Made by a program: the position numbers and the translations under genes | In this document: positions 20,393 to 49,618 of the stretch, one piece after another | How positions within the stretch are numbered: the first letter of the stretch is position 1 | Layout: each line of letters opens with the position of its first letter | The notes under the pieces: model-generated | What the model saw: the letters and a program-made list of their open reading frames with translations, nothing else | What the model was told of the DNA's origin: nothing | The model's database searches: none | Origin: a virus | Length of the DNA stretch: 64,000 bases | Virus record (IMG/VR): IMGVR_UViG_3300002835_000155 | Span: 3,862-67,861 of that record | Reading direction: 5' to 3' (one strand)

Positions 20393-23300
20393 TTACCGTA
20401 CCGCTTGTATCCTGTCAATCAGGGCTTTACGAGAATCTCTCGCTGGTTTGTCTTTGTCCGGTTTCTCATCGTCCTTCTTAGATTCCCGGTCCAACTTTTT
20501 CTGCAAGGCCAGAGCCTTCTCGATCTGTTCGAGTTGCATCGCGGTCTCGGTGTCGCCGTTGGCCAAGGCGAATTCCTTCAACTTATCAGCACCACTGACG
20601 ATCGTTAGCGGTCGAGCCCCGAGTTTAATCTGCAGAGCGTTGAGACGGTCTCGCAGGTCACGAGTAATCTGTTCGTTCTCAACCGTCTCCTCTCGGAAGC
20701 CGGTGGTGAGTCGTATGACTTTGTCCCAAGCACTCAACCGTTTATCGGTCGCGATCTTGGTCGACGACAACAGTCGTGACACCGGACTCATCGCTGCTAC
20801 TGACTCGGCAATCGGACCACCAACCGGGGTCGGCCGACCTGAAGCATCACGGCTCTGTAGTCCAAGGTTAGCTGCGATACGTCCCATCGTTGGGTCGAGG
20901 TCGTCAAGTCTTCTACCACCCATCGGCCCCTGACTGAACAGAGACGTATTGGTGCTGTACTCGATCAACCACTTCATCGCCGGATTAGACGAGCTGAGGG
21001 CGTGCTGCATCAGACCACGCAGATCACCCTGCAAGGCGTTGCCTGCGTACTTAACAGCGTCTTCGTGCATGAGACCAAGAGATGTCAGGTACTTGAGCTG
21101 ACCTTCGTCCGTCTCTCCCAGCGGAATAGCCGCAGAGTCGAGGTACTGATATGGGACGTAGTCCTCTTCACCACCCTGACCGAGACGGGTTGCCCTGATA
21201 ACCATACCAAGTTTACCACCCGGGTTAACCATCATCTCTGAGGCGAACAGTGGTAGCGTCTGTCTCATGAACGAGTAGTACGGGATGATTGACTTCATCC
21301 ACTTGTGTTCAAAGCGGGTGAAGTTCTTTGGGTTGGCATTGAGCAGTATCCTGTCAGCATCAGCCAATGCCTGCTTCATCGACTTAGTTTTCTTCAGCCG
21401 GTCGAGGATGAACGTGGTACGCACTGTCGAGTCGATCATACTTCGTAGATCGTTCATCGTGTTGACGACGGGGTTCTCCCCTACAGACCGCTGTACCTGT
21501 CGACCGAGTTCGTCCCGTGTCCACATACCCTGTACGTTGACTGCCTTCTTAGCCGCTGTCTTGGTCGCCTGAATCGGACTGGTCGCTGCGAGCTTAACCG
21601 TACCGGCTATGGTGGACGGAGCGTTCCGCAGCCGATCAACCATAGAACTGTACGACCCGCCAGCTTTGTTACGTAGCAACGCCATCGACGAGTCGGACTC
21701 GGCCAGCCGGAACGCATCGGCCGTCACGATGTCTGGGTTAGGAGACCCGTGCATGTGGTGGGCGTTGAACATGTCCTGGAATACACGTCCACGACTTTCA
21801 GCGGTAGACGGTATCCCTTTCGAGGCGAGGTACTGCTCGATGTCAGCAATACCTTCACCCGGGTCTATCGCCATACCTCTCGTGAATGACCAAGCCGCCT
21901 TGCCGTGTGTGTAGATAGCAGCGGGGTCCATGTCGCCCATGAGTACGCCCTGTGCATACGACGACATACCGTCGCGAACACCGGTTGCTGGTGACGTACT
22001 GAGCTGACCAGCTTTGGTCAGCGTATTCCAGTTCTGAGCGGCCCGAAGCGGTGTCTCAAGTTCCGGCAGTGAAGCCATCCCGGAGATTTCATTGAACGTC
22101 TTCATCTGGCTCCACGTATCAGCCGGGAGCCGGAGCGATTTGATTTCCAGAATCTGCTTGGCTAACTCATCGACATTGTCGGTTGCCTTCAAAGCCCCGT
22201 TGTCGACCAGATAGCTCCGGACCGATTCGATGAAACGCTTGTCACTGATACCTTTACCGAAGAAGCCGTCGTCAATCGCTTCTTCGAAAGTCATACCACG
22301 TTTGTTGGCCAGATCGTACTCGACCTCAACATTGCCTCGTGGACTTCGTACACCGAATGCGTTCGGGTTGGTACGTGCGTCGACCACAGCCTTGCCGACG
22401 AAGTCGCGTTGCTCTTTCAGCAAGCTCTCCATCGCCAGGTTCTTGTCAAGGTACTCCTTGTTGCTGACCGCTGCTGACTTCTCATACAAACTGTTGAACC
22501 GCCGCTCGACGTTATCAGCAACGTCGATAGCGAGGGCTCGGTGTCTGTCGACCAGACCGATAGACATGTCCTGCTTTATCTTCGCAGCTTCTCGGGCAGC
22601 GTCATCCTGGATAACGTCAGCTTTGTCAGCTACCTCGCCACGCAACTGCTCAAGACGTGTACGCTGAGCAGGCGTAAACATCATCGCTTCAAGACTGTCG
22701 TCGTCCAGGCGTAGTAACGCTTCATGAGGTGACTGTGGTTTGACGAAGTCGATACCTTCGGCCAGCTCATCAAAGGTTTTATGCCAATCCTTCAACCCAC
22801 CTTTGCGGGAGAAAGATCCAGCAGCATCCATTGCGACGATGTCCCCGTTGTCGTCCAGCTTAGGCATCCATTGGACGATCTTCTCTTTGTAGTTCCGAGT
22901 GATGCCGTTGTGGACCCCGTCGATGATCGCTTCCCTCTGCAGAAGCGGATCGTCAACCAGCATCTTGTCGAGGCTGTCCAACAGCTTCTTCTGCTGCAGT
23001 TCAACCTGGTGACGCTGAGTGGGTTTGAGCATCACCAGCTCGGACCTCATACCCCTATCGTGCTTGACGCCGATGTAGAGTTCCTTGCCTTCCTGTACGT
23101 GAGCAATAGCTGCGTCGTACTCATTGATCTTGGTAAACAACCGGCGTATGTTCGGGTCGAGGATGTTGTTCTTATCAACGAACTTCAGGTCCTCCGGCTT
23201 CATGTTCAACACACGCTCGGTGCCGTCTACCTTCGGGGTAATGCTCGTGTATGACTTCCACCAGCCCCGACCAGGTTGTACGCCAGCCACGTCGCCCTGC

Positions 23301-25210
23301 TTGACCTGTTGAGCGAACCCAGCGACAAAACCGTTGAACCTGGCCTTGAACTCGTCAACGGGTAAGTACGACTTGATCGTGGTCTTCGTATCTTCGGCGT
23401 TGAACAGCTTACGTACCAATCGCTCAGTACCGTCAGCGTTCAACCCATCAGGGACGTAGCCGAGAGGTTTGAGGGCGTCAGCCAATCCTGCCTGTGCATT
23501 TATCTCCAGCTTTGAAGCCGTACCACCTCGGGCAAGTTCACGAGCGATGTCCTGCAGAGCGTCGGGGAACCATGATGTATCGGCCATGCCCGTGGTGTCG
23601 ATACGAGCGGTACCGTCAACGACGGATACGTTTACCGAGTCCGCCATCTGGCCCCCTCGTACCACTGTGAATACACCGGGTGTCGCCGTGTTAGCGAACG
23701 CTCTGGTGTCTGTGGCATTGACGGGCTGCATCTGCTGCATCCGGGTCCACAAGTCTTCCGGAGTCATACCGATGGCTTCAGCGAATGACTCAACGTGTCG
23801 AGGGCCTACGTACCCCGGCAGGAAGTTAGGACCGTTGTTTGCACCGGTACCTGTAGCGAGGTCGTTAACTTCACGGACAGTGTTCTGCCAAACGCTGTCA
23901 CCGTACAAAGTGTTGACACCCGGGGTTCCGTCGAAGAACCCCTTGTACATCATGTCACGACCACCAGTGGCCTGCAGTGTTGACACGAGGCTGGCGTACT
24001 TGTTCCGCATCCACTTGCTGTGGGTCAAACCGCTGATGCTTTCTGCCCGAGCGAGTGACACGTTCTTACGTCTCGGTGAGAATTCAACAACGTCGATCAT
24101 GTCCCCGATGTTACCACCAAGCTCGTGGACTCTATCCTTCAGTGCGTCTCTGAAGTCCTTCATCTGCGTAGCTACATCCAGGACGTCCTGCGGGATCTCT
24201 ACCGATTGGCTCAACCACTGCTTCTTCGGGTCGAAGTCAAAGTCATTGTAGATTTTATCGTCGTTGACCAGCTTGACCTTCGTACCGGTAGAGGACCGGT
24301 CGACCCACTCGACTTCTTTGAAAGCGTTTGATCCCTCAGGTGTAACAAGGTCACCCTGTCGCAGCTTAGCTGTCGTTGGGTCGTACGTACCTTCCCAGAC
24401 ACGGAACAGTTGTTCTTCCCGGGCCTTGGTCACCAGAGGTGACGCATCGTCCAACCAGTTGGCTGGATCATTCATGTCAAGGTCTGGGTTCTTGTTGAGG
24501 TTGAACCCGCTTCGGTTGGCAGTCTCGACAAGATCAATACTCATCGTGTCAGCCAGTTGCTTCGCAGCATCTGCCGTGACGGTAGCTCGCTCCTTGATAC
24601 CCTGAGCGAACTCGTCAGTTACCCCACCGCTCGGTGCGTTGAACATAGCCTTTACGCCACGCCCTACACTTTTAGCAGCAGTCGTCAGTCTGTCCTTCGT
24701 GATCTGCCCGATCTGGGCCGGTAGCTTGTCAAACAGGTTGACAGCCCCCCGGGCCACACCTTTGACTACAGGGTGAGCCCGGTTAACCAGGCTGGCTGCA
24801 CCAGTGGCCATCTTCGTGCCCTTGGTTAACGGGCCGAAGGGGTCAAGCAACACCTCGGCACCGAACCCAGCAAGGTCGCGTAACCCCTCACCTGGATCTG
24901 ACAACCAGCCGTACATACCCGTCTCACGGTTGGACCTCATACCATACTTCTCAAGCAGTTGTCTGCCCGATGTACGGTTCCTGTCCGTGAGAGGGGAGAG
25001 CCACTGGTCGAGTGGGTTCTCGCCAGCCAGAATATCTCGAATCGACGAACCCGGTAGATCGAGGAAGTTACCTACGGACGCGACGGCTCCGAGACTAGCC
25101 CCACCCACAGCACTCAACGTGTCCATCAGGCCGGTACCACCAGACTGAGGTTGTTGAGGCTGGAGTTGGTTCTGCGGTACGAGATTGAGAAGCTGAGATA
25201 CTGTAGGCAT
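20393..25210 (-). CDS. Very large internal virion/ejection-like protein (1605 aa)
   Basis: Size, position after tail genes, helical composition and C-terminal FEHKWMKSIIPYYSFMRQTLP motif typical of podovirus-like ejection proteins. Confidence 0.7.
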   Translation of the reverse strand: MPTVSQLLNLVPQNQLQPQQPQSGGTGLMDTLSAVGGASLGAVASVGNFLDLPGSSIRDILAGENPLDQWLSPLTDRNRTSGRQLLEKYGMRSNRETGMYGWLSDPGEGLRDLAGFGAEVLLDPFGPLTKGTKMATGAASLVNRAHPVVKGVARGAVNLFDKLPAQIGQITKDRLTTAAKSVGRGVKAMFNAPSGGVTDEFAQGIKERATVTADAAKQLADTMSIDLVETANRSGFNLNKNPDLDMNDPANWLDDASPLVTKAREEQLFRVWEGTYDPTTAKLRQGDLVTPEGSNAFKEVEWVDRSSTGTKVKLVNDDKIYNDFDFDPKKQWLSQSVEIPQDVLDVATQMKDFRDALKDRVHELGGNIGDMIDVVEFSPRRKNVSLARAESISGLTHSKWMRNKYASLVSTLQATGGRDMMYKGFFDGTPGVNTLYGDSVWQNTVREVNDLATGTGANNGPNFLPGYVGPRHVESFAEAIGMTPEDLWTRMQQMQPVNATDTRAFANTATPGVFTVVRGGQMADSVNVSVVDGTARIDTTGMADTSWFPDALQDIARELARGGTASKLEINAQAGLADALKPLGYVPDGLNADGTERLVRKLFNAEDTKTTIKSYLPVDEFKARFNGFVAGFAQQVKQGDVAGVQPGRGWWKSYTSITPKVDGTERVLNMKPEDLKFVDKNNILDPNIRRLFTKINEYDAAIAHVQEGKELYIGVKHDRGMRSELVMLKPTQRHQVELQQKKLLDSLDKMLVDDPLLQREAIIDGVHNGITRNYKEKIVQWMPKLDDNGDIVAMDAAGSFSRKGGLKDWHKTFDELAEGIDFVKPQSPHEALLRLDDDSLEAMMFTPAQRTRLEQLRGEVADKADVIQDDAAREAAKIKQDMSIGLVDRHRALAIDVADNVERRFNSLYEKSAAVSNKEYLDKNLAMESLLKEQRDFVGKAVVDARTNPNAFGVRSPRGNVEVEYDLANKRGMTFEEAIDDGFFGKGISDKRFIESVRSYLVDNGALKATDNVDELAKQILEIKSLRLPADTWSQMKTFNEISGMASLPELETPLRAAQNWNTLTKAGQLSTSPATGVRDGMSSYAQGVLMGDMDPAAIYTHGKAAWSFTRGMAIDPGEGIADIEQYLASKGIPSTAESRGRVFQDMFNAHHMHGSPNPDIVTADAFRLAESDSSMALLRNKAGGSYSSMVDRLRNAPSTIAGTVKLAATSPIQATKTAAKKAVNVQGMWTRDELGRQVQRSVGENPVVNTMNDLRSMIDSTVRTTFILDRLKKTKSMKQALADADRILLNANPKNFTRFEHKWMKSIIPYYSFMRQTLPLFASEMMVNPGGKLGMVIRATRLGQGGEEDYVPYQYLDSAAIPLGETDEGQLKYLTSLGLMHEDAVKYAGNALQGDLRGLMQHALSSSNPAMKWLIEYSTNTSLFSQGPMGGRRLDDLDPTMGRIAANLGLQSRDASGRPTPVGGPIAESVAAMSPVSRLLSSTKIATDKRLSAWDKVIRLTTGFREETVENEQITRDLRDRLNALQIKLGARPLTIVSGADKLKEFALANGDTETAMQLEQIEKALALQKKLDRESKKDDEKPDKDKPARDSRKALIDRIQAVR

Positions 25211-25215
25211 TTAAC

Positions 25216-27648
25216 TCACTTCATTGGGTTTGCTGGCAATGGGTACTCGTATCCACCTGGAGATACAGTAGGGCCACCTTCCCCGGACAGGATTGCAGAC
25301 CCACCTATGAACCTATTCGTATCGGGACGGATGTTGCTCTTGAATTTCGCCCACCACTTCTGAAGGTCTTGCGGTGACGGGTTCTTCATGGTCGCAAGCT
25401 CTTTATACATCGGCCCGAAGGTTTTAGTGTGAGCTGCGTCTACCCCCGTCGCCCCGAACAAACCATTCATTTCTAAACCAAAAGGACCAAGGAGTCCCTC
25501 TGCTTCAAGCCCGGGCGACATGTCAAACGGGTCGTAACTTGGCGTACCATACCCAGCCTGCATTGCAACAGTTGCTGTGTATAACTTCTGCAGATCCTCA
25601 ACACCCAGGTCCTGGCCATCTTGAACCATCTGCTGTATGCCGAAGTGCATACCCTGGACGTTATCCGGAGAGTCGGCAAGACCCGCAAACATTGGAGACG
25701 GTGGGACCGTCGTACCGTCCGGGGCCTTGCCTCCGTTAGCCAACACATCCAGTATATCCCGAGATGCTTTGCTGCTGTCTGGTGTTACAATTCCACCCGG
25801 CATCAACTTTTCGGATACATCCGCCATCGGATTCGGTCCAGCTTGATTCTGACCACCCCTACCGGCCATCATGTCTGGGTACATCTGCCCCGCCATAGAA
25901 GTACCACCTGCTATCGGGTTGCCTGACCGACGCAGAGCCTTCTCAGCCCGTAACTGCATACGGTAGTTAGCTTCCTGCGGACTGAGCCTGCCTTCTCGGA
26001 CAGCCTTCAAGGTCAGGGAGTTGTTGCCGTTGCTGCTGCCAGTCATCCGGTCATATTGGCGGTAGTTCATCCCGCCATTAGCAGCCTTGAATGCTTCGTG
26101 CTTTGCGGCTCGTGCTGCAGCTTGTGCGTTGGCAGCAGCACGACGTTTCAGCTCAGCCTCAGGTACGTTCTGGTTGTTGCGGTCACGTAGTGCCTCACGC
26201 TCGACCTTACCGGCCGTCTGTGCCCGACGAGCCGACTCCGGTGTACCCGTGAAGTACACGACCTTACCGTCAGCCGTACGTACAGCTCGGCCCTCAGCAA
26301 TTGCTGTGGCGTCTGCGTTTAGTCCAGCCCCATACGCACCACCGAATCTACCCCCGATATTGGTTGGGTCGGCTGCAGCTCCACCACCTGCGATACGCCG
26401 GGCATTCCCTTCAGCGAGGTTGAGCTTTTCTTCAGGATCAAGCCGCATTGGATTCCGAGCGTATCCGACGTTGCCGTTGTACCCGTTTACTGTTGGAGCA
26501 GTCACCCCGTTGAGATCCTCAGGAGCAATCTTGCGGAAGTTTCGTGTCGCTTCACCAGACGACGTCGCCCCCGGCTCGAACATGATATTCCCTTGACGTG
26601 TACCACGGTCGATCTCAGCCTGCATTGCTGCAATCCGGGGATCACCACCCGGTGCCGGGTTCATAGGATTGTCTGATTGTGACCGTTGGCGTAGAGCATC
26701 AATCTTCCCGGCAAGTTCCGTCATACGGATGGACTCCATATCCATGCCCGCTGCTTGCTGCTCATAGTAGCTTGGTGCTTGACTCGCAACACTCCGAGGG
26801 ACAGGACCCCGGTCGTCAGGGGTGTACCCGCTACGGATCGGGTTTGCATCCGGGGCGTTGAGGACGTCAGCCAAGTTCGGTACGTCCCCAGACCCAGCAC
26901 CGTTCCACGAGAATCGGAAACCTGGCGTATCTTGTAAGTCGCGTATGCGTTCTGGACGTACGTTACCCATCGGTCCGTCATAGTATTCCGTAGGTGGGTT
27001 CAGAGCACCCGCAACCGTGTTGTACATTGAGGATATGCCCTGCCCGACGCTGTTGACGAACCCGCGTAGACCCGGAGACCCCTGGATCTGAGTGTTCAAA
27101 CCCGGAGCTGCGTACCCCACCTGCTGGCCGGGAGGGACCTGTGGGAGTGCGTTACGCCCCCTCTGGTAGCTCTCCATCCCGTCCTGTGCAAAGTTAAGCC
27201 CTTGGCTCGCGGCTTCCAGACCCCGTCCAACGAGTCCGGGTATTGGAGACGACCCGCCGATACCTTGGCCGTTACCACCGGGTGCTGCGTACCCCTGCTG
27301 ACTACCGTACATCGGGTTCAGCCGGTCCTGCTTGACAGCGTCCAGTGCTGCCGCAGCCCTACCCAGCACGTCCTGGTTCTGCGGGTTGAACGACCGAGGT
27401 CCACCCATGTTTTGTACCCCCCCGTTCACCAGGGGGTTACCGTTCCCGTCCCTGTCGTCCACCCCGTAGATGAAGTTGGCGTTGCCGGGATTCTGGCCCC
27501 TGTCAATCCGGTACTGCTCCTGAAATGTGTTTGGTCTCGGAGGTATGTAGTCGGGATGACTTGGATGGTAAATCATAGCATTACGTAAAGCGGGTGCCGC
27601 CGACCGCTGTGTCAGGCTTCGTCGCTTTCTGAACAAATTATCCGGCAT
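25216..27648 (-). CDS. Low-complexity G/P/Q/N/A-rich probable internal virion protein (810 aa)
   Basis: AGGAG-like RBS; no Cys; repeated QQ.GYAAPG segments; directly upstream of the 1605-aa gene. Confidence 0.65.
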   Translation of the reverse strand: MPDNLFRKRRSLTQRSAAPALRNAMIYHPSHPDYIPPRPNTFQEQYRIDRGQNPGNANFIYGVDDRDGNGNPLVNGGVQNMGGPRSFNPQNQDVLGRAAAALDAVKQDRLNPMYGSQQGYAAPGGNGQGIGGSSPIPGLVGRGLEAASQGLNFAQDGMESYQRGRNALPQVPPGQQVGYAAPGLNTQIQGSPGLRGFVNSVGQGISSMYNTVAGALNPPTEYYDGPMGNVRPERIRDLQDTPGFRFSWNGAGSGDVPNLADVLNAPDANPIRSGYTPDDRGPVPRSVASQAPSYYEQQAAGMDMESIRMTELAGKIDALRQRSQSDNPMNPAPGGDPRIAAMQAEIDRGTRQGNIMFEPGATSSGEATRNFRKIAPEDLNGVTAPTVNGYNGNVGYARNPMRLDPEEKLNLAEGNARRIAGGGAAADPTNIGGRFGGAYGAGLNADATAIAEGRAVRTADGKVVYFTGTPESARRAQTAGKVEREALRDRNNQNVPEAELKRRAAANAQAAARAAKHEAFKAANGGMNYRQYDRMTGSSNGNNSLTLKAVREGRLSPQEANYRMQLRAEKALRRSGNPIAGGTSMAGQMYPDMMAGRGGQNQAGPNPMADVSEKLMPGGIVTPDSSKASRDILDVLANGGKAPDGTTVPPSPMFAGLADSPDNVQGMHFGIQQMVQDGQDLGVEDLQKLYTATVAMQAGYGTPSYDPFDMSPGLEAEGLLGPFGLEMNGLFGATGVDAAHTKTFGPMYKELATMKNPSPQDLQKWWAKFKSNIRPDTNRFIGGSAILSGEGGPTVSPGGYEYPLPANPMK

Positions 27649-27724
27649 GATTCTCTCCGTCAGGAAAATGTTGAGCCGGGATTGTACCGGGCTTGACAAT
27701 GGGTGTCTAGTAGAAACATGGCGA

Positions 27725-38655: not shown

Positions 38656-38846
38656 GGGCTTGACTCCGTGACTTCCACGGTAGCTACCGGGGTAGTTGGT
38701 TCAACTTCCGGAGTCGGTACTTCCTCGAAGCTCTCGTCAACACACTTCAGTACCTTCAGCAACGCTGACGTACCGACTCCACTGCCGAGCTTGTGCCTCA
38801 GCATCATCTCAAGGGCCGACTCTTCGATAGGTGTCAACAGTGACAT
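38652..38846 (-). CDS. Small hypothetical protein
   Basis: Fills the gap with TAATG and ATGA overlaps. Confidence 0.6.
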   Translation of the reverse strand: MSLLTPIEESALEMMLRHKLGSGVGTSALLKVLKCVDESFEEVPTPEVEPTTPVATVEVTESSP

Positions 38847-41032
38847 TACTTACCCTTATTCTTCGCAGCCTGCTCTGCAGCCGCTGCCTGGATGTCCTGC
38901 TGCTCCTGCAGGTGAACCATTTTCTGCAGGTGAGCCTCCTCCTGCATACGAACTTTCTGGCGGTTGAACAGATCATTCCACTGCATCTTTTGCTGTGCAG
39001 GAGCCGCCGCTCCACCTTGTTTGTACTGAGCGTCGACCAGCCTTGCAACGGTCTTCGCTTTAATCTCTTCGGTTTGAGCCACAGTTTTCTGAGACTCAAT
39101 GGCAGCAGCCTGTTGCTGAGCCTGCAGCATGGCAGGATCTTGCTGTGGACGCCACTCTCCGAAGAAGAAGTCTTCGATGTCCCGGATCTGTGCAGACTCC
39201 CCGAACCGAGCGATGATAGCATTCATCGGTTTGGTGTCGCCGGTATCGGTCGCGTACTGCTGTGCAGCCGGAATCAAGAACGGTGCGATCCTCTCCAGAT
39301 CACTCATATCCTTGTCGCGGTTGGGCCGCTTCATGTCTGTCGCTTCGATCCACACCTCGACCTCGCGACACAGTTCTTCGAACGGCATGGCCCCGAGCAA
39401 GGTGTCCCATGCCATTGAACCCCAGGGGCCAAGTAGACCCCGGAGCTGTTCGCCCCTCATGTACATCGCTGCGAGCCACAGCTCCTTCGTGGAGACGTTG
39501 ACTACGAACTTGTGGACGTCAGTCGCCATCTTCTCTGGTCGGACGTTAGCAGCGTTCTGCTTAGCGTTTACGTCAGCACTCACGCGAGCTTGCTTCTGGC
39601 TGACACCGTAGTGGATGTCATCGAGCCCTGTCGCCATCTGGAACTGGTTGTCGAGGTACTGCAACCAGTCCAGCAGGTTACCCTGTACCTCTGGCCGCTG
39701 CAGAAACGACACGACGTCCTGGACTCGGATATTCGAGACCGGGTTGATCTTGATAATCGCAGGGTTGTTCTCACCCTTGATTGCTTGCTCGACCTCTTGT
39801 TCATACCCGTTGTAGATGGCGATGATGTCTCTGCGTCGGTCCCAGCTCATTTCGAGATGGGTAACAAGCAGGATGTTCATGGCCAACAACGAACCGATAC
39901 CCGGACCGAGTACAGCCATCGGCCAGGTTGAGTTGATGATCGGGTAGAAGTCCATGACCTCGACAGGCCACTTGCGGTCCTTCCACAATTCACAGACCGA
40001 ACCGTATCGTGACGTTCGCCACTTCAACGCTTCAAGGATCTGCTCCGGCATACCCAGGTTGACAAGATCCGGTGGTAGGTTCAACGGGTGGGGAACCGTA
40101 CGACAGAGACATAGGTAACAGTTGTCACCGGTCAACTGGTCGATGGCTTGGCCGAAGTCACCGTGGACTCCCGCAACACGAGCACCAATACCACCTGTCG
40201 ACCATACCTCAAACCATTCGACCTGGTCTTGGTATAGGGTCTGTGCGTTCTCCTGCACTGAACCCTTTGTGGCGAACTCGAAACTGGTGTGTGTTCCACG
40301 ACCGTAGAGGTACCCGGCTGGGTACCCAAAGCGACGTTCAACGACCCACGCTGGTTCCTGATGACGCCGGGCGATCCATTTTACATCTCGTAGGAGTGGA
40401 TCTTTTGCATCCGGGTCGATCAGCAAGTCATCGACGGGGGCGTAGAACGTACCGACGCAGGCCGCACCTGTCGCCTTGTCTTCATATGTCTCAGTCCAGC
40501 CGCACCCTCGGCCGGTCACAAGAGCATCCTGAATGATCATCTCGTAGTCAGACTTCACCGAGCCTGGGTGCTGCCGACCGATGTACTCCATCACGACAGT
40601 GGCGAGACTGTTACGCATTGTGCGTTGAGCCTCGTTCTGCTCCTGCTGCTGCTTAACTTGGTCAAGCAACATCTCATCTGTCAAACCAAGAAGCTGAGCA
40701 ATCTGTACCTGGTCGGGGGTGTCAGCCGTCTTAACTTCGCGTGACGGGTTCTGCCAGTACAAGCTCGGGCCGATGATAGCCACCAGCTCGAAGGCTTTGT
40801 TCAAGCTGACCATAAACTGTGGTTGACTGACCGATGGGTAGAACTCTTTACGGAAGCTGTCCTCCCACATGGTCTTGGCTGAGCTGCCGAGGAATTGTCG
40901 GCAGAGCTTGGCCATCACGTTGAACCGCTCTTTCGTTTTCTCTGCAGCACCGAACCGGGCGAACCACTGATTGACCAGTGGACCCAGAACCCATCGCTGC
41001 AGTTGTTCCATATCGAGCGGTTGCATCGTCAA
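38846..41032 (-). CDS. Portal protein
   Basis: 728 aa after TerL; DALVTGRG, DLLIDPDA...WIARR; Q-rich coiled-coil C-terminal barrel (P22-like). Confidence 0.8.
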   Translation of the reverse strand: MTMQPLDMEQLQRWVLGPLVNQWFARFGAAEKTKERFNVMAKLCRQFLGSSAKTMWEDSFRKEFYPSVSQPQFMVSLNKAFELVAIIGPSLYWQNPSREVKTADTPDQVQIAQLLGLTDEMLLDQVKQQQEQNEAQRTMRNSLATVVMEYIGRQHPGSVKSDYEMIIQDALVTGRGCGWTETYEDKATGAACVGTFYAPVDDLLIDPDAKDPLLRDVKWIARRHQEPAWVVERRFGYPAGYLYGRGTHTSFEFATKGSVQENAQTLYQDQVEWFEVWSTGGIGARVAGVHGDFGQAIDQLTGDNCYLCLCRTVPHPLNLPPDLVNLGMPEQILEALKWRTSRYGSVCELWKDRKWPVEVMDFYPIINSTWPMAVLGPGIGSLLAMNILLVTHLEMSWDRRRDIIAIYNGYEQEVEQAIKGENNPAIIKINPVSNIRVQDVVSFLQRPEVQGNLLDWLQYLDNQFQMATGLDDIHYGVSQKQARVSADVNAKQNAANVRPEKMATDVHKFVVNVSTKELWLAAMYMRGEQLRGLLGPWGSMAWDTLLGAMPFEELCREVEVWIEATDMKRPNRDKDMSDLERIAPFLIPAAQQYATDTGDTKPMNAIIARFGESAQIRDIEDFFFGEWRPQQDPAMLQAQQQAAAIESQKTVAQTEEIKAKTVARLVDAQYKQGGAAAPAQQKMQWNDLFNRQKVRMQEEAHLQKMVHLQEQQDIQAAAAEQAAKNKGK

Positions 41033-41358: not shown

Positions 41359-44157
41359 TTATGGGATGCCGAGAACAATCTTGTCCTTGCGGTCTTCCTT
41401 GTCTCGACGGAAACGATCCTGGATAAACTTCTGGTCTGCCTCCCACATGAGGAGACCGGGGTCTTTGGGAACCTGATTCACCGGAGGTGCCATGAACTTC
41501 GGGTTGAATCCGGCGTAGTACTCAGCACAATTCCCAGTAACCATTACCTTCATATTTCTTCGCACAATCAGTGTGCCGTTTGGTACGGTAGCACAGTACA
41601 CTTTCCCTGAATAGTGTTTTCTCGTAGGCAAGTATTCGTTTTTGTGATTTACAAGGGAAGCGACTCCTCTTCGAAGGTACACCCAGTACTGATCTCGGCC
41701 TAACCCCGTTCTACCTTCTATGTTCCAGTCTTTGCCTTTGCGAACCGTGACAGACGTGTGTTGGCCAAGTTTAAGGTACAACTCCTGTAGGTCACCAGCC
41801 AGAAGCCTACTCGTTGTAGCCATATGGTCTTTACCCCGTTGGACCCAACCATCACCGGCGAGATACCCTCGAAGGAAAGCCCTGATTACATTAGGGGCAG
41901 ATTGTTTGACCCAATCTGGTACCCTTTTATCCCAAGCCTTGTACCCCAGATTCATATCATGGATGGCTGTCCACAACTGCCTACTGGATATTACGTAGCT
42001 GCTCTTATCCCGCACCCAGTGCCACGGTACACGGTTCAATAAGTTTTCCAGTTTCACGACACCGTCAGGCTTTACCTGAGCTATCTGGACGCGGTAGCCG
42101 CTACCTGGTATTTTTACTACTTGATCTATACTGCCTTCCGACACCCACCATCCGATCAGTTCTGCGTAGTCTTCGGTGTTGATTGATGCAGCCTTATTAC
42201 GACACTTCCACGGGCATGTTAACTCGGTTGTCTCCTGGGACTGTACCCCCCATTCAACACCCGGACTCAGCTTCAACAGGTTTTGCCGGGGTAAATCTTC
42301 TGCGTTGACGAACACCCATTTGTCTCGGTCGTGCTGCCGGTACACCACCATCCGGTGGGTTGGTGTCACCGAGCAGCTCACTGTGCGGGTTTCTATCTCA
42401 ACCAGGTCGCCGTCAAACTGTTTTTCTACCCAACGTACCGGCGACTGGTACTCCAGTGTATTCTGTGGGCTAACTGTAGCAAGCCTCTCCGTACGATCTA
42501 CGGTATCCCACGTCTTCCAACCTGAGTCTGTTAACACCTCTACCGAGGGGTGGAAACAGTCTAAGATGTCGTGGATCTGGCCCGGAGCGAGCTTGTCCTG
42601 AACATCCTCCTTTGTAACGGCTTTCACCGTCGTCTCTAACTGTTTGACAAGCACCGGGCACATGTGAGTCACAACGCGAAACCGGGGTCGGCCGCATGAC
42701 GTTCGTACCTGCATTAGTGTACGTAACTTCAACGAACGGTTAACCCAGACGGTCTCACCCCTGAGAAACATATCACCGGTCAATTGACAACGCAAGCCCG
42801 CCTTCCGGAACTCCATCTCGTAATTCTGGAAAACCGTATGGGCGTGCCCCATTGGCGTCTGATCACCTGCCTTAGCGTCTCCAATGAATCGGGCGTACCA
42901 GCGGTGTGGATCGGCTGCTTTGGCTCGTCTGGCCATTTCTCCAGCGTGAATACGTGGGACAGCCATCTCCCGGAATACGATGTGGTAGGGGTCGCCGTCG
43001 TCCCAGAAAGACTCAGGAGGTATTGCCACCCAGAGCAATGCAGGCCGGACAGTACCCGGGTCAAGGATGATATCAACGCACCAGTCGGCTGGAGCGTTCC
43101 AGTTGAGCCGACGCATCGCCTCGGTGACCTTGTCGTTCAACGGGTGTCCATCGCCGTAGTCAACACAGTGGGTACGCTTATTGAACTCCGGGTACGCGAG
43201 GATGTTACCAACGACGAAGTCGCCCATCGCACGAGCGGTTATCTGATCCTCTGACCAACCTTCGATACGCTTACGCTTTTCATCCTCGTCGATGAAGGGG
43301 TTCTTGAATGAGGTGAACTTGAAGTTGGTTACGTCGAGCTTTTTACGAGTACCTGCGTTGAACTCTTCTCGTTGGTTCTCGCATCGCCGGTATAAGTCGA
43401 GCAGGGCAGGCGTCGAAGCGTCCGGCCACGATGTCCAGAAGATACGGCCCTTACGGTCGGACAGACGAGACTGCCACTCGGCGTAGTGGCTGCTGTTCTC
43501 GATTTCTTCGTCGATCCAGATGATGTTTACAGGGTCGCCACGCTTCACAGCTCCAGACGATGCAAACGCATAGACGGTTGAACCGTCCTTCATGGTCAAC
43601 GACTCAAACTGGAACGCTGCCTTGTTAGCCCACGATTCCTTCTCGATCATTGTTGGCGGGATGAACGGTGGTGCTGGCTTCCTCTCGTTGACTGGTATTA
43701 CGTCATCCCCTGGTACAACGCCTGGCTGCCAGCATCTCCACATGCCGGTTGTCTTGTCTCGAACAATGTCGAACGCTCCCGGTTTGCAGAGCAGTCGATA
43801 GATCGTCTGACCGATGTGGTTCAACTGCAGACCGATAAGCCACACGTTGACCGGTCGGTCAAGCCAACCGGGTTCACGCACGTAGTGTTTCGACCCATCC
43901 GAAAAGGTAATGGGTACTCCTGTCAGGTACGACGAGACCATCGCTGCTACGATTGTGGACTTGCCAGATCGTGGTGCTCCTTGTACCAGAATTTCGGAAG
44001 CCCCACTGAGGACAACCTCTTCCTGGTACTTCGTTGGCCTGAACAGTTCAAGGGCGTTTACCCGTTGACGTACGAGCTTAGCAGCAGCAGCGACACCTTG
44101 TTGAAGGTCCTGCCTGTCTTTCAGTGATGACTTTATTCGACTGATGAGATCACTCAT
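41359..44157 (-). CDS. terL: Terminase large subunit (intein-containing)
   Basis: GAPRSGKS Walker A, IWIDEE Walker B, ILDPG nuclease Asp, C-terminal HDILD|C.EY. Confidence 0.92.
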   Translation of the reverse strand: MSDLISRIKSSLKDRQDLQQGVAAAAKLVRQRVNALELFRPTKYQEEVVLSGASEILVQGAPRSGKSTIVAAMVSSYLTGVPITFSDGSKHYVREPGWLDRPVNVWLIGLQLNHIGQTIYRLLCKPGAFDIVRDKTTGMWRCWQPGVVPGDDVIPVNERKPAPPFIPPTMIEKESWANKAAFQFESLTMKDGSTVYAFASSGAVKRGDPVNIIWIDEEIENSSHYAEWQSRLSDRKGRIFWTSWPDASTPALLDLYRRCENQREEFNAGTRKKLDVTNFKFTSFKNPFIDEDEKRKRIEGWSEDQITARAMGDFVVGNILAYPEFNKRTHCVDYGDGHPLNDKVTEAMRRLNWNAPADWCVDIILDPGTVRPALLWVAIPPESFWDDGDPYHIVFREMAVPRIHAGEMARRAKAADPHRWYARFIGDAKAGDQTPMGHAHTVFQNYEMEFRKAGLRCQLTGDMFLRGETVWVNRSLKLRTLMQVRTSCGRPRFRVVTHMCPVLVKQLETTVKAVTKEDVQDKLAPGQIHDILDCFHPSVEVLTDSGWKTWDTVDRTERLATVSPQNTLEYQSPVRWVEKQFDGDLVEIETRTVSCSVTPTHRMVVYRQHDRDKWVFVNAEDLPRQNLLKLSPGVEWGVQSQETTELTCPWKCRNKAASINTEDYAELIGWWVSEGSIDQVVKIPGSGYRVQIAQVKPDGVVKLENLLNRVPWHWVRDKSSYVISSRQLWTAIHDMNLGYKAWDKRVPDWVKQSAPNVIRAFLRGYLAGDGWVQRGKDHMATTSRLLAGDLQELYLKLGQHTSVTVRKGKDWNIEGRTGLGRDQYWVYLRRGVASLVNHKNEYLPTRKHYSGKVYCATVPNGTLIVRRNMKVMVTGNCAEYYAGFNPKFMAPPVNQVPKDPGLLMWEADQKFIQDRFRRDKEDRKDKIVLGIP
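41530..42558 (-). mobile_element. Intein with LAGLIDADG endonuclease in TerL (343 aa)
   Basis: CFHPSVEVLT..GW, TPTHR, IGWWVSEGS, FLRGYLAGDG, VYC...TGN|C. Confidence 0.93.
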
Positions 44158-44780
44158 ACGTAGATAACCTCGGCCTTTAGACCAGCCTCAATCTTATCGA
44201 GGGCTCGTCCAGCCGCAGCCACCACCGCTTCAGCATCTGCTTCAATAATCGCGTCAAGGATCTTCACCCTGAAGTCCGGGTCGGTCTCAATCTGAAGCAA
44301 CGCAGCTTGTGAGGCGATGGCCATGAGGTCAGCCTCGGACACATCGGCCAGTGGGTCCCCCGTATCGCCAGCGAGCTTGTCTCGTGCCTGGAAGATGTTG
44401 ACCAACATCTCGGTCAACCCTTTGGCCACCTTCCAGTCTGTCTCGTGGAAGACCTGTAGCTCGGGATCGAGGTGTTCACCTTTCACCCTCTTGAGATCCT
44501 CTACAATCATCTTGGCGAGGTTACCAGCTCCGCCGAGAGCCTCCTCTGCAGCCTCGGCCATGTCGAGCGTGAGCGGCCGTCCCGATCGGCGTACCTCAGC
44601 TAAGGCATCCCTGAACCCACGCCCGGGCTTAGCCGGAGTACTCGTGGCCAGCACAGCAATTGTGCTGGCTGTCTTTACTTCATCTTCGCAGGACATACAG
44701 AAACCTCTGGGGGAGAGTTGCTTGACCGGCATACCGCACATCCCTTTGCAGATGACGCGGCCCGGGAATACCTCGCTCAC
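44154..44780 (-). CDS. Putative terminase small subunit
   Basis: Immediately upstream of TerL; helical; N-terminal Cys cluster; LADVSEADL motif. Confidence 0.55.
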   Translation of the reverse strand: MSEVFPGRVICKGMCGMPVKQLSPRGFCMSCEDEVKTASTIAVLATSTPAKPGRGFRDALAEVRRSGRPLTLDMAEAAEEALGGAGNLAKMIVEDLKRVKGEHLDPELQVFHETDWKVAKGLTEMLVNIFQARDKLAGDTGDPLADVSEADLMAIASQAALLQIETDPDFRVKILDAIIEADAEAVVAAAGRALDKIEAGLKAEVIYV

Positions 44781-46489
44781 ATTACACCGCCGTAATTGTT
44801 CTGACGGGCGAGTATGTTGTATAGGGCAGTTGTTGCGACTGGGGCGGCTACGCCCGGCAACTGTTGTATCGGCCGCATTGGATTCGTTGATTGCATCGTT
44901 GCCGCGTCCGCTGCCTGGACTCGCGGTTTGGCAACCTGCTGAACCAGAGTCGTTGGGTTGATCGGTACACGTTGACCGTCGATAGCTCGTACCCTCATCT
45001 GGTTCAAAAGGTCTTGATCCCAGATGGCGTAGTTGTACGTGTTGCGGCCCGTAGACGCAGCAAGGTTTTTTGTCCCAGAAATACCCAGTTTTGAAACAGA
45101 CTCCGCATTATCTATTGGTGCGGTACGTGGCTCTCCCCGCAGTAACACCCGGGCGATCTCTTCGCCAGTAAGTTCATCTGCATTTTCGAGGAGGTCTATG
45201 GCTGAACTCTCGTGTAAACCTGTTCGTCTCGCGATGTCTTCGGCAATGCTTCGCTGACTGTTACGAGCCTGACTGGCTGCTGCCAACCAACGCATACCTT
45301 CCGGAGTGTCAAGGTAGTCAGGATTGTAACCCTTCAACTCTCGCATCCTCATCCTCGCTTTACCTAAATTGGTCCGTGAGGCCATAAACTCGTTCACCGC
45401 ATCGTTCAGCCCGGGTACGCTCTCCATCAGACCTGATTGGACTGGGTAGTGCTGCTGACCGAGCGGCTTATGCCAATCGACGAGTTTCTCGTGAAAGTCG
45501 TCAGGAGCATCGAGCTGGTATAGTCTCGCTTTAGGAACCGATGCTTCGAGGTTGCCATATGCAGCTTTGATCTCAGCCGGAATTGGTTGCTTGTCCAGAC
45601 CAACCCCGTCACTCAGTATGTCGTACAGCTTGTCTCGCCCCCTCAAAGTCCTGATGTCAGTACCCAGCCAATTGTTGTTGTCCAGCAATGACACAAGGGA
45701 TTTGACACTGTCTGGAACCGGGTCGTCAATGAACGAATTCAACAACGGGTTTATAGCTCCCGAGCTAGGCTCAAGCTCATTCTTTCTCTTAATCAACGCT
45801 CGGCTGAATTCTGTCAGCGGATCGTTACGCTTCAACTTTCTTTGCACTAAATCCCGGTAATGCTCACTCGTGCTCTCCGCTTCGGCAAAGTACGCACCAG
45901 GCCCGTAAGCGTTAGCACCCTCGCCAGTCTTCAGTCGGCCCACGTCGAACATGCCGTATGGATTCTCCGGTGTCGCAGACGCAGTCCAGTCATGCCCACC
46001 GTGATAAACAACAGGACGCTCGGGGGTGTACCCGAGGAGTTTCTGTGGAGCCTGCTGTGTGATAGGGTTGACAAGCTCGTCAGCCTGGCCAGCCAGTTTC
46101 GCGTTGACGTACCCATACTTGCCACCGTTGAACTCGTTCAACGCAGAATTGTACCAGTTATCCGACTTAGCGATCCTACGACCGTCTAAAGCCTTCATAA
46201 CCCCAGCACCGCTGACAAGGTTCAACGGGTCAAGGATCATCTCGGCCCCGAATCCAAGAACGTCAGCCACTCCCTCCAGTGGGTCGTTGAGCCAGCCAGA
46301 CATACCCGTCTCTTTGTTCTTACCAAAGATCGGGTTCAACATGTCCCTGCCAGACGTACGGTTCTCTGACGTGAACGGTGTCGCCCACTGGTCGAACGGG
46401 TTACTTCCGGCGAACAGGTCTCGCAACGACGATGCTGGTAGATCAAGAGCGTTACCCGCGTAGCTCAGAAGTTCCATCAATCCTGGCAT
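44777..46489 (-). CDS. ADP-ribosyltransferase-like (polyvalent-protein ART) domain protein; N-terminus shared with the ejection protein
   Basis: VYHG...FD....TGEGANAYGPGAYFAE, LYQLD.P, VDW.KPL.QQ, LGISG...NYAIWD. Confidence 0.75.
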   Translation of the reverse strand: MPGLMELLSYAGNALDLPASSLRDLFAGSNPFDQWATPFTSENRTSGRDMLNPIFGKNKETGMSGWLNDPLEGVADVLGFGAEMILDPLNLVSGAGVMKALDGRRIAKSDNWYNSALNEFNGGKYGYVNAKLAGQADELVNPITQQAPQKLLGYTPERPVVYHGGHDWTASATPENPYGMFDVGRLKTGEGANAYGPGAYFAEAESTSEHYRDLVQRKLKRNDPLTEFSRALIKRKNELEPSSGAINPLLNSFIDDPVPDSVKSLVSLLDNNNWLGTDIRTLRGRDKLYDILSDGVGLDKQPIPAEIKAAYGNLEASVPKARLYQLDAPDDFHEKLVDWHKPLGQQHYPVQSGLMESVPGLNDAVNEFMASRTNLGKARMRMRELKGYNPDYLDTPEGMRWLAAASQARNSQRSIAEDIARRTGLHESSAIDLLENADELTGEEIARVLLRGEPRTAPIDNAESVSKLGISGTKNLAASTGRNTYNYAIWDQDLLNQMRVRAIDGQRVPINPTTLVQQVAKPRVQAADAATMQSTNPMRPIQQLPGVAAPVATTALYNILARQNNYGGVM

Positions 46490-46501
46490 GATGACTCGCC
46501 T

Positions 46502-46539
46502 AAAGAAAAAGGGCAGACAAGTCTAGCCTGCCTGCCCTT
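46502..46539 (-). terminator. Rho-independent terminator after the capsid genes
   Basis: AAGGGCAGGCAGG-CTAGA-CTTGTCTGCCCTT-TTTCTTT on the - strand. Confidence 0.75.
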
Positions 46540-46709
46540 CGGGTTAAAGTCTGATTGACTGGTAGATCACTTCTGCGTTGGCGGCGTCAGAGTCACCTGA
46601 ACCGGATTACCAGCCTGAACTACCTGAGCTGTTGAGGTACCATGAATTGCGGGTGGAGGACTGTTGGGCGTCATAGTTAGGATCACCACCATTCGTAGCC
46701 GGTGAGGGC

Positions 46710-47412: not shown

Positions 47413-48558
47413 TCACGTCTTGGAGATGAATCGAGCCAGGTATTTCGGCATGAACTTGTAGTTGCCGTAGCAACTGACGTAGTACAGGTATCCAACGTCC
47501 TTGACAGAGTAGTCAGGACCCTGAGCACCGTAAATCTGGTTGTGGACGAAGAACGCTTCCACGTACTGTGGCAAGTACATGTAGGCTTCGCCAGTCGGGA
47601 CAGCGTAGTCCATTGAGTAGACCATGCCGTCGACCATCAGGGTTTCGCCTGGATAGCCGAGGTCACCGTCGCGGAACGGCATCATCTGGCGGTTGTTCTC
47701 ACGGAAGCTGTTCTTGAACTCCGTGAACATTTCAGACGCCATGACCACGTTCGGCATGGCTCCGACCATTGACTGACCGCCTCGGTGCAGCATCGCAGTC
47801 TGAGCATAGCTCGTTGCAGCGATAGCGTTTGAGGCCCAGTCGGTAGCAGAAGTCTGCCACGCTGTCGAGGCGTAGTTAACGATCAGTGGGCTCGTGCCGT
47901 CGTACTCGCTTGAACCCTGACCGAAAGGCCAGTCCTTGTCCAGGTTTGCATTCGGGCTGGTTGCCAAGTCGCCAGACCAGGTACCGCCAAGGTTACCGAG
48001 AGCACAAGACTGACCAGCGTAGGTCCCGTCAGGCTTCGCAATCTTGTCAGCAGCAGTCACGGTGCCAGTTGCGTATGACAGTGGGGTTTTCAGACCCACG
48101 AAGTCATACACGTTTGCAGCCAGGTTGCCGTCCTTGTAGTAGGAGTGACTGAGTCGCTCCATCATGGACTGAGCAAGTTCTTTGGACTTGCGGGTGTAGC
48201 GGTCACTGATCTGCTCAGGTGCTCCCTGAGCCTGCAGGTATTCCAGCTCTGGCAAGTAGTCGGTACCACGGTACCCCTTCATGCCGATGTAGAACTGGAT
48301 GTCAGTGTCAGTGTTGACGAACTCGATTGGTTGACCGTCGATGGCCGGGATGATCTGTGGTTGTTTGACCCGAGCGTTCCACATCTGAGTGTGTGAACGA
48401 GCGTTGTACGTGATCGACCCGTACTTCATCAGATTGAAGTACGTCAGGTAGTTTCGGACTGTCAAGTCAGAAACGCCCTTCCAGTACTTCGGAGCCAAGT
48501 CACGGACGCTGTTAATGTGCCCGTTGACAGTTGCTGAATTGATCGTATGACCGGCCAT
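47413..48558 (-). CDS. Major capsid protein
   Basis: 381 aa after the scaffold-like gene; GGAG RBS; biased codons; YKDG...F.GL and terminal YGNY...P pattern of HK97-fold capsids. Confidence 0.78.
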   Translation of the reverse strand: MAGHTINSATVNGHINSVRDLAPKYWKGVSDLTVRNYLTYFNLMKYGSITYNARSHTQMWNARVKQPQIIPAIDGQPIEFVNTDTDIQFYIGMKGYRGTDYLPELEYLQAQGAPEQISDRYTRKSKELAQSMMERLSHSYYKDGNLAANVYDFVGLKTPLSYATGTVTAADKIAKPDGTYAGQSCALGNLGGTWSGDLATSPNANLDKDWPFGQGSSEYDGTSPLIVNYASTAWQTSATDWASNAIAATSYAQTAMLHRGGQSMVGAMPNVVMASEMFTEFKNSFRENNRQMMPFRDGDLGYPGETLMVDGMVYSMDYAVPTGEAYMYLPQYVEAFFVHNQIYGAQGPDYSVKDVGYLYYVSCYGNYKFMPKYLARFISKT

Positions 48559-48571
48559 GTGCTACTCCGTG

Positions 48572-49618
48572 TTATTGCGGAAGGGCTTGTAGTCTGGCAA
48601 ACGATGGGAGTCCGTCGTTGTCCAGGAATACATTCTGTTGTTGAGGAGGAACATTACTGAGGAAAGTTCCCGGAGCGTTAAACGCCGGGTTCTGTGCTGG
48701 TGGGTTCTGAAGAACCTGTTGCATCCAAGGTTGTGGCTGAGGCTGTGGGGCCTGTTGAGTCACGGTTGTCAAGTATGGGGTGGCTGCTGTCATGGCAAAC
48801 CTGTGAACATCCTCGGGTGTCATCCCGTAGTTCGCAGCCATGTCCCACGCATCGCCGTACGCTTTTCCCGCTACGGATGGTGTACGTGTCCCATTCTGAT
48901 CGGTCGTCCATAGCACAGCCTCGTTCTGCTTGATCCACGCTTCGTGCGGTTTTGGGGTACTCTTCGCAATGTCATGTTGAAGCTGCAGGTTCTGCTGCTT
49001 CAGGGCTTCCATCTCTCTCTGGAGTGGAGTCAGGTATTGCTCGATTGCCGTCTTGCCGTACTTAGCGATGAAGGCTGCAGGGTCAGACAGTTCAGCCTGA
49101 CGGGCCTGTGCTTCAAGGATCTGCTGGTTAAGTTGCTGAGCCAGTTGTCCGGCAGCAGGTTGCTTAGCGACCCACTGCCCGTTCTCAAGAGCCATCCAGC
49201 CATTCTGCTGGAAAGCCATTGCCATCTTATTCAAGTCTTCAGCCGGTGGTGCAGGAAGCTGCGGAGCGGCTGGAGGGGTTACAGGTTGAGCTTTGACTCG
49301 GTCGAGTTCATCAGCCGTCTGTTCAGCCACAGTGTAGATCGCGTTGAACGCTTCCTGCACAGTGTTGAACCGTCCGGGAGGGAGTCTTCCCTCCTGCTCA
49401 AGTTGAACCAGATACGGGTCTCGCGGGGGAGCCGCTGGTGGTACAAACTGAGGAGTCGGCTGTGGTGTTGGAGGAGCTGGTAAACCCATCCCGCCCGGTT
49501 GTGGAACCGGGACGGGAGGGCTGTTCGCTCCCCCAGACGGAGCACTCGGAATGTTCGGTTGTGGGATAGCAGCCTGTTGCTGCAACATCTGAAACGACGG
49601 TATCGCTGGGGTAGTCAT
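48572..49618 (-). CDS. Putative scaffolding protein
   Basis: Upstream of MCP; P/Q/A-rich with a coiled coil. Confidence 0.65.
   Translation of the reverse strand: MTTPAIPSFQMLQQQAAIPQPNIPSAPSGGANSPPVPVPQPGGMGLPAPPTPQPTPQFVPPAAPPRDPYLVQLEQEGRLPPGRFNTVQEAFNAIYTVAEQTADELDRVKAQPVTPPAAPQLPAPPAEDLNKMAMAFQQNGWMALENGQWVAKQPAAGQLAQQLNQQILEAQARQAELSDPAAFIAKYGKTAIEQYLTPLQREMEALKQQNLQLQHDIAKSTPKPHEAWIKQNEAVLWTTDQNGTRTPSVAGKAYGDAWDMAANYGMTPEDVHRFAMTAATPYLTTVTQQAPQPQPQPWMQQVLQNPPAQNPAFNAPGTFLSNVPPQQQNVFLDNDGLPSFARLQALPQ

Follow-up and report, generated by a model that had tools for sequence, protein, structure and literature searches.

A conserved N-terminal domain shared by a giant phage protein and an accessory ADP-ribosyltransferase-like protein: a candidate docking and ejection module

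Introduction

Why would a phage carry the same N-terminal domain twice, once on a giant protein and once on a much smaller one with an enzyme-like core? The question arises in a 64,000-base stretch of viral DNA (the window), which spans positions 3862-67861 of IMG/VR record IMGVR_UViG_3300002835_000155, a 67,861-bp record with direct terminal repeats that is rated 100% complete. The two genes concerned encode proteins of 570 amino acids (aa) (44777..46489) and 1605 aa (20393..25210); coordinates here and below are window positions, and all window features described lie on the minus strand. A preliminary description made from the letters of the DNA had proposed that the smaller protein is an effector related to ADP-ribosyltransferases (ARTs), that the larger is a giant ejection protein, and that the domain common to both is a modular address for loading proteins into the virion and injecting them.

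To our knowledge, how a phage chooses the proteins that it packs and injects is known in only a few model phages, through the T4 targeting peptide, the binding of MuF/gp7 to the portal and the P1 Dar proteins. Capsid targeting in T4 depends on a short capsid-targeting sequence that is cleaved. In MuF and polyvalent proteins, the combination of a virion-association domain with variable effectors, encoded beside packaging genes, is established (PMC5512222, PMC5576092), and polyvalent proteins are predicted to be packaged and injected (PMC5512222). Here we describe the family to which the shared domain belongs, the exchangeable cargos of the smaller protein and its accessory status, and we weigh the possibility that the domain serves to dock both proteins in the virion.

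Results

The 570-aa and 1605-aa proteins share their N-terminal domain

By BLASTP, the 570-aa protein (residues 3-89) and the 1605-aa protein (residues 27-125) align at E 1e-26, with 52 of 99 positions identical, 63 of 99 positive and 12 gap columns. Because the second-best segment reached only E 0.12, we regard the remainder of the two proteins as unrelated. Both results bear out the preliminary description, in which about 47 identities over 78 columns had been counted by hand and the rest of the proteins judged dissimilar. We delimit the shared domain (N-domain) as residues 1-95 of the 570-aa protein (46205..46489) and, from BLASTP and MAFFT, residues 25-129 of the 1605-aa protein (24824..25138); the MAFFT alignment of this pair has 52 invariant columns and 55% identity. 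The two genes lie 21.3 kb apart, and the genome holds exactly two copies of the domain.

Polar in character and rich in Gly and Pro, the N-domain has conserved Asp, Glu and Arg residues and no hydrophobic span. Within the long protein it is conserved better than any other part, at about the level of the head protein and terminase: identities to the same relatives are 34-91% in the N-domain versus 23-67% in the remainder. No Pfam, PHROG or NCBIfam model matched the 570-aa protein, the 1605-aa protein, or the 827-aa Gly/Pro/Gln/Asn-rich protein encoded by the open reading frame (ORF) just upstream of the 1605-aa gene (25216-27699).

The N-domain is widespread and falls into two old lineages

We built a profile from the two N-domains and compared it with 1.84 billion cluster representatives, of which 814 matched at E<=1e-3; 405 of these reached E<=1e-10 and 46 reached E<=1e-30. 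In each of the 150 matches listed of these 814, the domain starts within the first 90 residues (150/150). Sorted by length and domain start position, the listed matches comprise 73 long proteins (>=1150 aa, domain starting at about residue 20-90), 45 short proteins (280-1149 aa, domain starting by residue 15) and 32 that are fragments or unclear. The long class, to which the 1605-aa protein belongs, ranges from about 1150 to 2950 aa, and the 570-aa protein belongs to the short class. On a FastTree phylogeny of 159 N-domains, the long/short label requires only 4 changes compared to a mean of 52 upon shuffling (0 of 500 shuffles as low), which points to two old paralogous lineages rather than to a tag that hops among many proteins. 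Moreover, the pair in the window's own genome (55% identity) is no closer than pairs taken across genomes (50-62%), arguing against gene conversion or concerted evolution. Ten N-domain clusters that were looked up had metagenomic sources only, and tblastn against 50,697 GenBank phage records yielded no relatives.

The domain thus extends far beyond the one pairing from which it was first described, and the notion of a modular address holds insofar as it is a widespread N-terminal domain, but not as a free tag on many unrelated proteins. A possible second, C-terminal N-domain copy in the long class, hinted at by the BLASTP segment at E 0.12 and by profile matches that fell in two stretches of a protein, was not supported (hmmsearch E 0.02-0.85 in four proteins; hhalign E 0.036). 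After the N-domain, the most conserved part of long-class proteins is a block near the C-terminus, at residues ~1260-1530 of the 1605-aa protein (...PFYSFMR...NPGG.LG..IRA...GPMGGRRLDDLDP...), which contains many near-invariant residues and belongs to no known family.

Short-class proteins carry different cargos between two constant ends

The 570-aa protein, with an ATG start, consists of the N-domain, an ART-like core with two helical insertions, and a C-terminal tail. In its 67 homologues (E<=1e-3), the constant parts are the N-domain, a GKYGYVN linker and the ~60-aa tail, whose pattern is ...NPMRP.QQLPG..AP....YN.LARQNNYGG.. (residues 511-570; 44780..44959). Short-class proteins with unrelated middles also keep the tail, so that the cargo is flanked by a second constant element, one absent from the preliminary description. 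No other ORF in the window ends in a tail resembling this one; a candidate similarity to the C-terminus of the putative scaffold (E 0.13) reflected Pro/Gln composition only and was rejected.

The middles themselves differ. The window protein has an ART-like middle of a type that we call window-type, P0040, P0045 and P0060 share another module, P0053 and P0083 have distinct modules, and P0063 and P0086 have large multi-module middles. Among the 45 short representatives, 17 have a window-type ART, six a canonical ART-PolyVal domain, one both and 21 neither. The sole Pfam family found in the cargos was PF18760, in P0086 (E 6e-22) and in 7/40 further members; the other short-class cargos had no Pfam match. 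At a single genomic position, the middles were dissimilar to that of the window protein in 8/19 syntenic loci. Diverse cargos had been expected of a modular address in the preliminary description, and the middles of the short class do vary at one locus. When the middles were clustered by single linkage, mosaic proteins collapsed into one group of 78, a result from which we did not count cargo types. Natural module shuffling is apparent in two proteins: P0082 (858 aa) combines a window-type ART and a canonical ART-PolyVal domain in one chain, and in P0050 (623 aa) a P0040-type module is inserted inside a window-type ART.

ARTs occur in the long class as well, a canonical one in P0145 (PF18760, E 1e-20) and window-type ones in P0156 (residues 785-1057) and P0134 (residues 926-1204), so that both classes behave as effector carriers. 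A search for an ART-like domain in the window's own 1605-aa protein found none.

The middle of the 570-aa protein has a probable ART-like fold and a conserved His-Tyr-Asp triad

The preliminary description had recognized ART motifs in the 570-aa protein, and both VVYHGGHDW...TGEGANAYGPGAYFAE and NYAIWD are present. We place the core at residues 156-510 (44960..46024) on the basis of secondary structure, the conserved triad, Foldseek comparison with BFVD and a weak hhalign match. An AlphaFold2 model computed with a 61-sequence alignment had a mean predicted local distance difference test (pLDDT) score of 73, mostly >80 for residues 160-510, and replaced a single-sequence model of mean pLDDT 39.5. 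Strands are predicted at residues 160-166, 199-202, 321-327, 472-476, 485-489 and 499-503, with the two helical insertions at roughly 205-316 and 345-467. His163, in strand 160-166, and Tyr200, in strand 199-202, occur in 61 of 61 homologues, and Asp491, right after strand 485-489, in 59 of 61 (Asn in the other two), these homologues extending down to ~30% identity. Polyvalent-protein ARTs are defined by an active site to which strands 1, 2 and 5 contribute His, Tyr and Asp, respectively (PMC5512222), and the window triad has this H/Y/D arrangement, with the strand numbering being our own reading of the AlphaFold2 model.

Foldseek against the predicted viral structures of BFVD returned 20 hits at E<=1e-3, with ART-PolyVal-like names at ranks 4, 8 and 18 and large-polyvalent-protein-associated ones at ranks 13 and 14; single-domain PolyVal ARTs gave target-normalised template modelling (TM) scores of 0.56 and 0.51 (ranks 21 and 24; E 3e-3 and 9e-3). 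In hhalign against six canonical ARTs, the N-terminal half of the core aligned at E 5.6e-4, placing YHG/GPGAYF on YHGT/GKGFYF. A hidden Markov model (HMM) of canonical ARTs matched the intermediates P0067, P0186 and P0193, whose domain is split at the same place. The VIA structure search was dominated by the helical hairpin at residues 360-425 and matched no solved ART. The only PDB match that spanned the window ART-like core was to residues 1421-1604 of a cyanophage A4 chain, with a score in the chance range; by its numbering this chain is probably gp27 (1717 aa in GenBank), in which we found no Pfam family, and we treat it as a lead, not as proof.

Since no Pfam model detects the core and no solved ART was matched, we call it a divergent relative and not a demonstrated ART-PolyVal member. 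Judged from the conserved triad and the model, this relative probably works like ART-PolyVal enzymes, with an H/Y/D active site. Of the ART assignment in the preliminary description, the triad stands, an ART-like fold is supported by the comparison with predicted viral structures, and a match to the Pfam ART-PolyVal model was not obtained.

The short-class gene is an accessory gene in a fixed interval

Twelve related IMG/VR records were compared. The long-class gene is present in 12/12, with open frames of 1228-1849 aa, and the short-class gene in 8/12, with open frames of 386-766 aa; two copies of the domain per genome, which the preliminary description had expected of a modular address, are thus found in these eight as well as in the window's own genome. 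Four of the related records are rated 100% complete, and of these three have both classes and one, G004, only the long class. All 19 short-class loci fetched (several being near-duplicates) lie in the interval between the head protein and terminase genes, as had been described for the window, where the locus order agrees. The 14 long-class loci all sit elsewhere, with a homologue of the 827-aa protein directly upstream in seven of them. Within the interval, the short-class gene precedes that of a 208-aa protein in the window and in seven loci (L003, L009, L013-L016, L018), and the order is reversed in 12 (L004-L008, L010-L012, L017, L020, L021, L030).

Comparison with G004 defines the accessory segment. 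In this close, complete relative, identity to the window counterpart is 93-96% for the major head protein, terminase and portal and 78% for the product of the 176-aa gene that follows the head gene; the 208-aa protein is also present, protein identities overall being 78-96%, and the short-class gene is absent. By blastn, a segment of 1,735 bp (44772..46506) is missing from G004, where its flanks, 80% and 90% identical, are contiguous. The segment consists of the 570-aa gene and 17 bp upstream, and the stop codon of this gene is shared with the start of the 208-aa gene. So clean an indel relative to a close, complete genome identifies the 570-aa gene as accessory.

Between the 176-aa and 570-aa genes is a terminator-like hairpin of 14 pairs (7 G-C) followed by the T-run TTTTTCTTT (46508..46540), and the homology break with G004 begins directly after it, at 46506. 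To judge by sequence, the placement of this hairpin fits reduced expression downstream of the head genes.

Two N-domain copies also occur in a distant record (G006; loci L038 and L039). Its short copy (G006:C1:64065-65468, minus strand) is a 468-aa open frame with long hydrophobic, possibly membrane-spanning stretches and no ART, and is located among tail-side structural genes, not beside the terminase.

Late gene order and the context of the 1605-aa protein

The late operon reads, on the minus strand, scaffold, head protein, 176-aa, 570-aa and 208-aa proteins, terminase and portal; downstream of the portal gene come about 12 unannotated genes, then those of the 827-aa and 1605-aa proteins. 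The scaffold (48572-49618) is putative and named by position only, the major head protein (47413-48558) matches phrog_9953 (E 1e-6), and the portal (38846-41032) matches phrog_1216 (E 1e-7). The large terminase (41359-44157) was identified from Terminase_6N (E 1.2e-3, 19 bits, below the Pfam cut-off of 22 bits) and from a LAGLIDADG intein. Precomputed PF16510 tags, which we take to denote the P22-type portal family, are present on 10/120 portal homologues among those listed. PHROG scans of ten further structural ORFs gave no matches, so that the assignment of this uncultured phage to a short-tailed type is putative.

Context points to the 1605-aa protein as a putative internal or ejection-type virion protein: its size, its position at the end of the structural block beside the 827-aa protein, the P22-type portal tags and the ARTs in some relatives. 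Among automated leads, the Atlas search pointed to P22 gp16 for the N-domain (score 0.84) and to LPD38 for the long protein (score 0.88), and hhalign did not confirm the P22 lead. By hhalign, the N-domain profile alone was marginally similar to P22 gp20 (E 0.021). N-domain profiles also aligned with residues 332-401 of gp27 from A4 (Anabaena phage A-4L; locus L036) at E 0.006 for the short class and 0.025 for the long, with the common motif GFG..(L/I)LDP, which we note as a weak lead only.

The intein-like insert of the terminase (41530-42558; residues 534-876; LAGLIDADG_3, E 6e-11) begins with Cys and ends in ...GN, followed by a last Cys. The G004 terminase lacks it, residues 1-533 and 876-932 being contiguous there.

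Discussion

A proposed module for docking and ejection

We favour the view that the 570-aa protein is an accessory ART effector that shares an N-domain docking and ejection module with the giant protein, a reading that, taken whole, we consider evenly balanced between right and wrong. Each protein would bind through its N-domain to one conserved partner, common to both, in the head or the ejection apparatus. A few copies of the optional enzyme would then be packaged, exit the capsid together with the giant protein when a cell is infected, and ADP-ribosylate host targets there. A docking role is suggested by the N-terminal position of the domain in every listed match, its high conservation, its polar character and low modelling confidence, and its occurrence on optional and universal proteins alike. 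By analogy, two ejection proteins may provide a precedent for such a role at the N-terminus: the giant gp50 of N4 has an N-terminal domain that associates with gp51 and, as has been proposed, exits behind it (PMC13434306), and in cyanophage A4, gp27 is the outer-layer ejection protein, whose residues 114-154 plug into the inner proteins (PMC12002296).

Several points weigh against this view. Virion incorporation, co-ejection, the docking partner and enzymatic activity are all steps that we infer. The N-domain is confined to two gene lineages, a distribution that on sequence grounds fits a shared structural role as well as a portable address. AlphaFold2 models it with low confidence (means over 10-residue blocks of pLDDT 44-68), which may be typical of segments that fold on a partner. 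For the 1605-aa protein, hhalign with a 31-sequence profile gave E values of at least 0.025 against A4 gp26-29, at least 0.099 against P22 gp7, gp20 and gp16, and at least 0.28 against BPP-1 Bbp9-11, with no similarity to the last, including Bbp10, and PDB sequence searches returned nothing relevant. The 'giant ejection protein' of the preliminary description thus has no detectable similarity to the ejection proteins of A4, P22 or BPP-1, and the name reflects size and position. For the enzyme, the 570-aa protein had no Pfam hit at E<=1, PF18760 (gathering score 31.2 bits) included, and the six-sequence canonical ART HMM reached only E 1.1. The C-terminal half of the core aligned with canonical ARTs (NYAIWDQ on EYLAFDP) at E 0.15 or 0.03; the alignments of the two halves are colinear but weak. 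Finally, when the whole model was compared with the PDB by Foldseek, only long helices matched, at E>=0.23, and nothing at E<=0.2.

The same proposal can be extended to the family. The ~95-aa N-domain may be a previously undescribed, widespread docking and ejection module, MuF-like in function and unrelated to MuF, that ties proteins to the internal ejection apparatus across a large group of uncultured phages, with the short class as a cargo cassette of constant ends and exchanged enzymes. We advance this only tentatively, as somewhat short of an even call.

Alternative explanations

The N-domain could instead be a working part of the ejection machinery after release, associating with the envelope or a membrane or contributing to a trans-envelope conduit, and the short-class proteins would then be minor ejectosome components. 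The N-terminal domain of N4 gp50 is lipid-binding as well as gp51-associated in ejection (PMC13434306), the 468-aa N-domain protein of the distant G006 has long hydrophobic stretches in place of an ART, and 21 of the 45 short representatives have no recognisable enzyme. The window N-domain is, however, polar and Gly/Pro-rich with no hydrophobic span, and a close, complete relative does without the short gene, which would be unexpected for a conduit component. On balance we think this explanation unlikely.

It is distinctly unlikely, in our estimate, that the 570-aa protein is not packaged and is instead a late cytoplasmic enzyme, whose N-domain binds the assembly partner of the giant protein and which modifies a virion or host protein during morphogenesis. 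Its place in the late operon, just downstream of the hairpin, shows only late and probably reduced expression, and its incorporation into virions is itself conjectural, both of which would suit such an enzyme. Yet the same ART types are fused inside giant proteins of the long class, polyvalent proteins with such an ART are typically encoded beside virion genes and predicted to be packaged (PMC5512222), and two constant ends around a variable cargo are easier to explain by delivery than by a fixed substrate.

We consider it quite improbable that the ART-like core lacks catalysis, or has a different activity, and plays a structural or binding role: the failure of the Pfam model and the interruption of the core by two large helical insertions are what such a module might present, but His, Tyr and Asp are retained in 61, 61 and 59 of 61 homologues, as is typical of a working active site. 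The least probable case, a shared N-terminus that merely survives from an old duplication and no longer has any function in common, would accord with the almost clean separation of the classes on the N-domain tree (4 changes) and with the absence of concerted evolution (55% in the own pair versus 50-62% across genomes), but the two paralogues have retained one set of invariant residues (52 columns in the window pair), and conservation within each class is higher in the N-domain than outside it.

Relation to known systems

Returning to the 570-aa protein as an accessory effector with a docking module, its closest parallels are polyvalent proteins, in which effector domains joined in one polypeptide are encoded among late virion genes and the ART has an H/Y/D active site (PMC5512222). 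The 570-aa protein likewise has three modules in one chain, and its gene stands beside the head and terminase genes. Unlike polyvalent-protein ARTs, which form the ART-PolyVal (Tox-ART-HYD2-like) clade, the window ART is missed by PF18760 and contains two helical insertions, although relatives do match PF18760; also unlike polyvalent proteins, the constant N-domain and C-tail match no Pfam, PHROG or NCBIfam model, and the N-domain occurs on a universal giant protein as well.

MuF proteins (SPP1 gp7 and Mu gpF) are similar in joining an N-terminal association domain to variable enzymes beside portal and terminase genes (PMC5576092). The 570-aa protein differs in having no MuF domain (no Pfam match at E<=1 and no PHROG match), and in holding its cargo in the middle, between two constant ends, where that of MuF is C-terminal. 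In contrast to MuF toxins, no immunity gene turned up here, although no search was aimed at one. T4 Alt, an ART packaged in the head and injected with the DNA, would be a functional counterpart, but its active site is Arg-Ser-Glu, of the Alt/VIP2 clade (PMC5512222), whereas that of the window protein is His-Tyr-Asp.

The giant protein resembles N4 gp50 and A4 gp27 in being a very large, putatively internal protein, the N-terminal part of which contacts other ejection proteins in those phages. It has no significant sequence similarity to either, and no RNA polymerase is present here; nor do the parts of the gp50 and gp27 accounts on which we draw describe a second, small protein that reuses the N-terminal region.

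Implications

Fusion of a virion-association domain to variable effectors is thus an idea already known from MuF and polyvalent proteins. Three features are new here: the domain family, its presence on both a universal giant protein and an optional cassette protein, and a constant frame that encloses the cargo at both ends. The family offers natural controls, since the same backbone occurs with and without the gene, the same ends enclose different middles, and the N-domain is also found on an essential-looking giant. If the module proposed for the family is real, it would amount to a defined address with two ends, by which foreign proteins could be loaded into phage heads and injected. Should docking prove true, it would explain how injected host-modifying enzymes are swapped in an uncultured phage group and would provide a handle for loading cargo into capsids; should it prove false, the N-domain would still represent a new, large domain family (814 clusters), and the window-type core a divergent branch of the polyvalent-protein ARTs.

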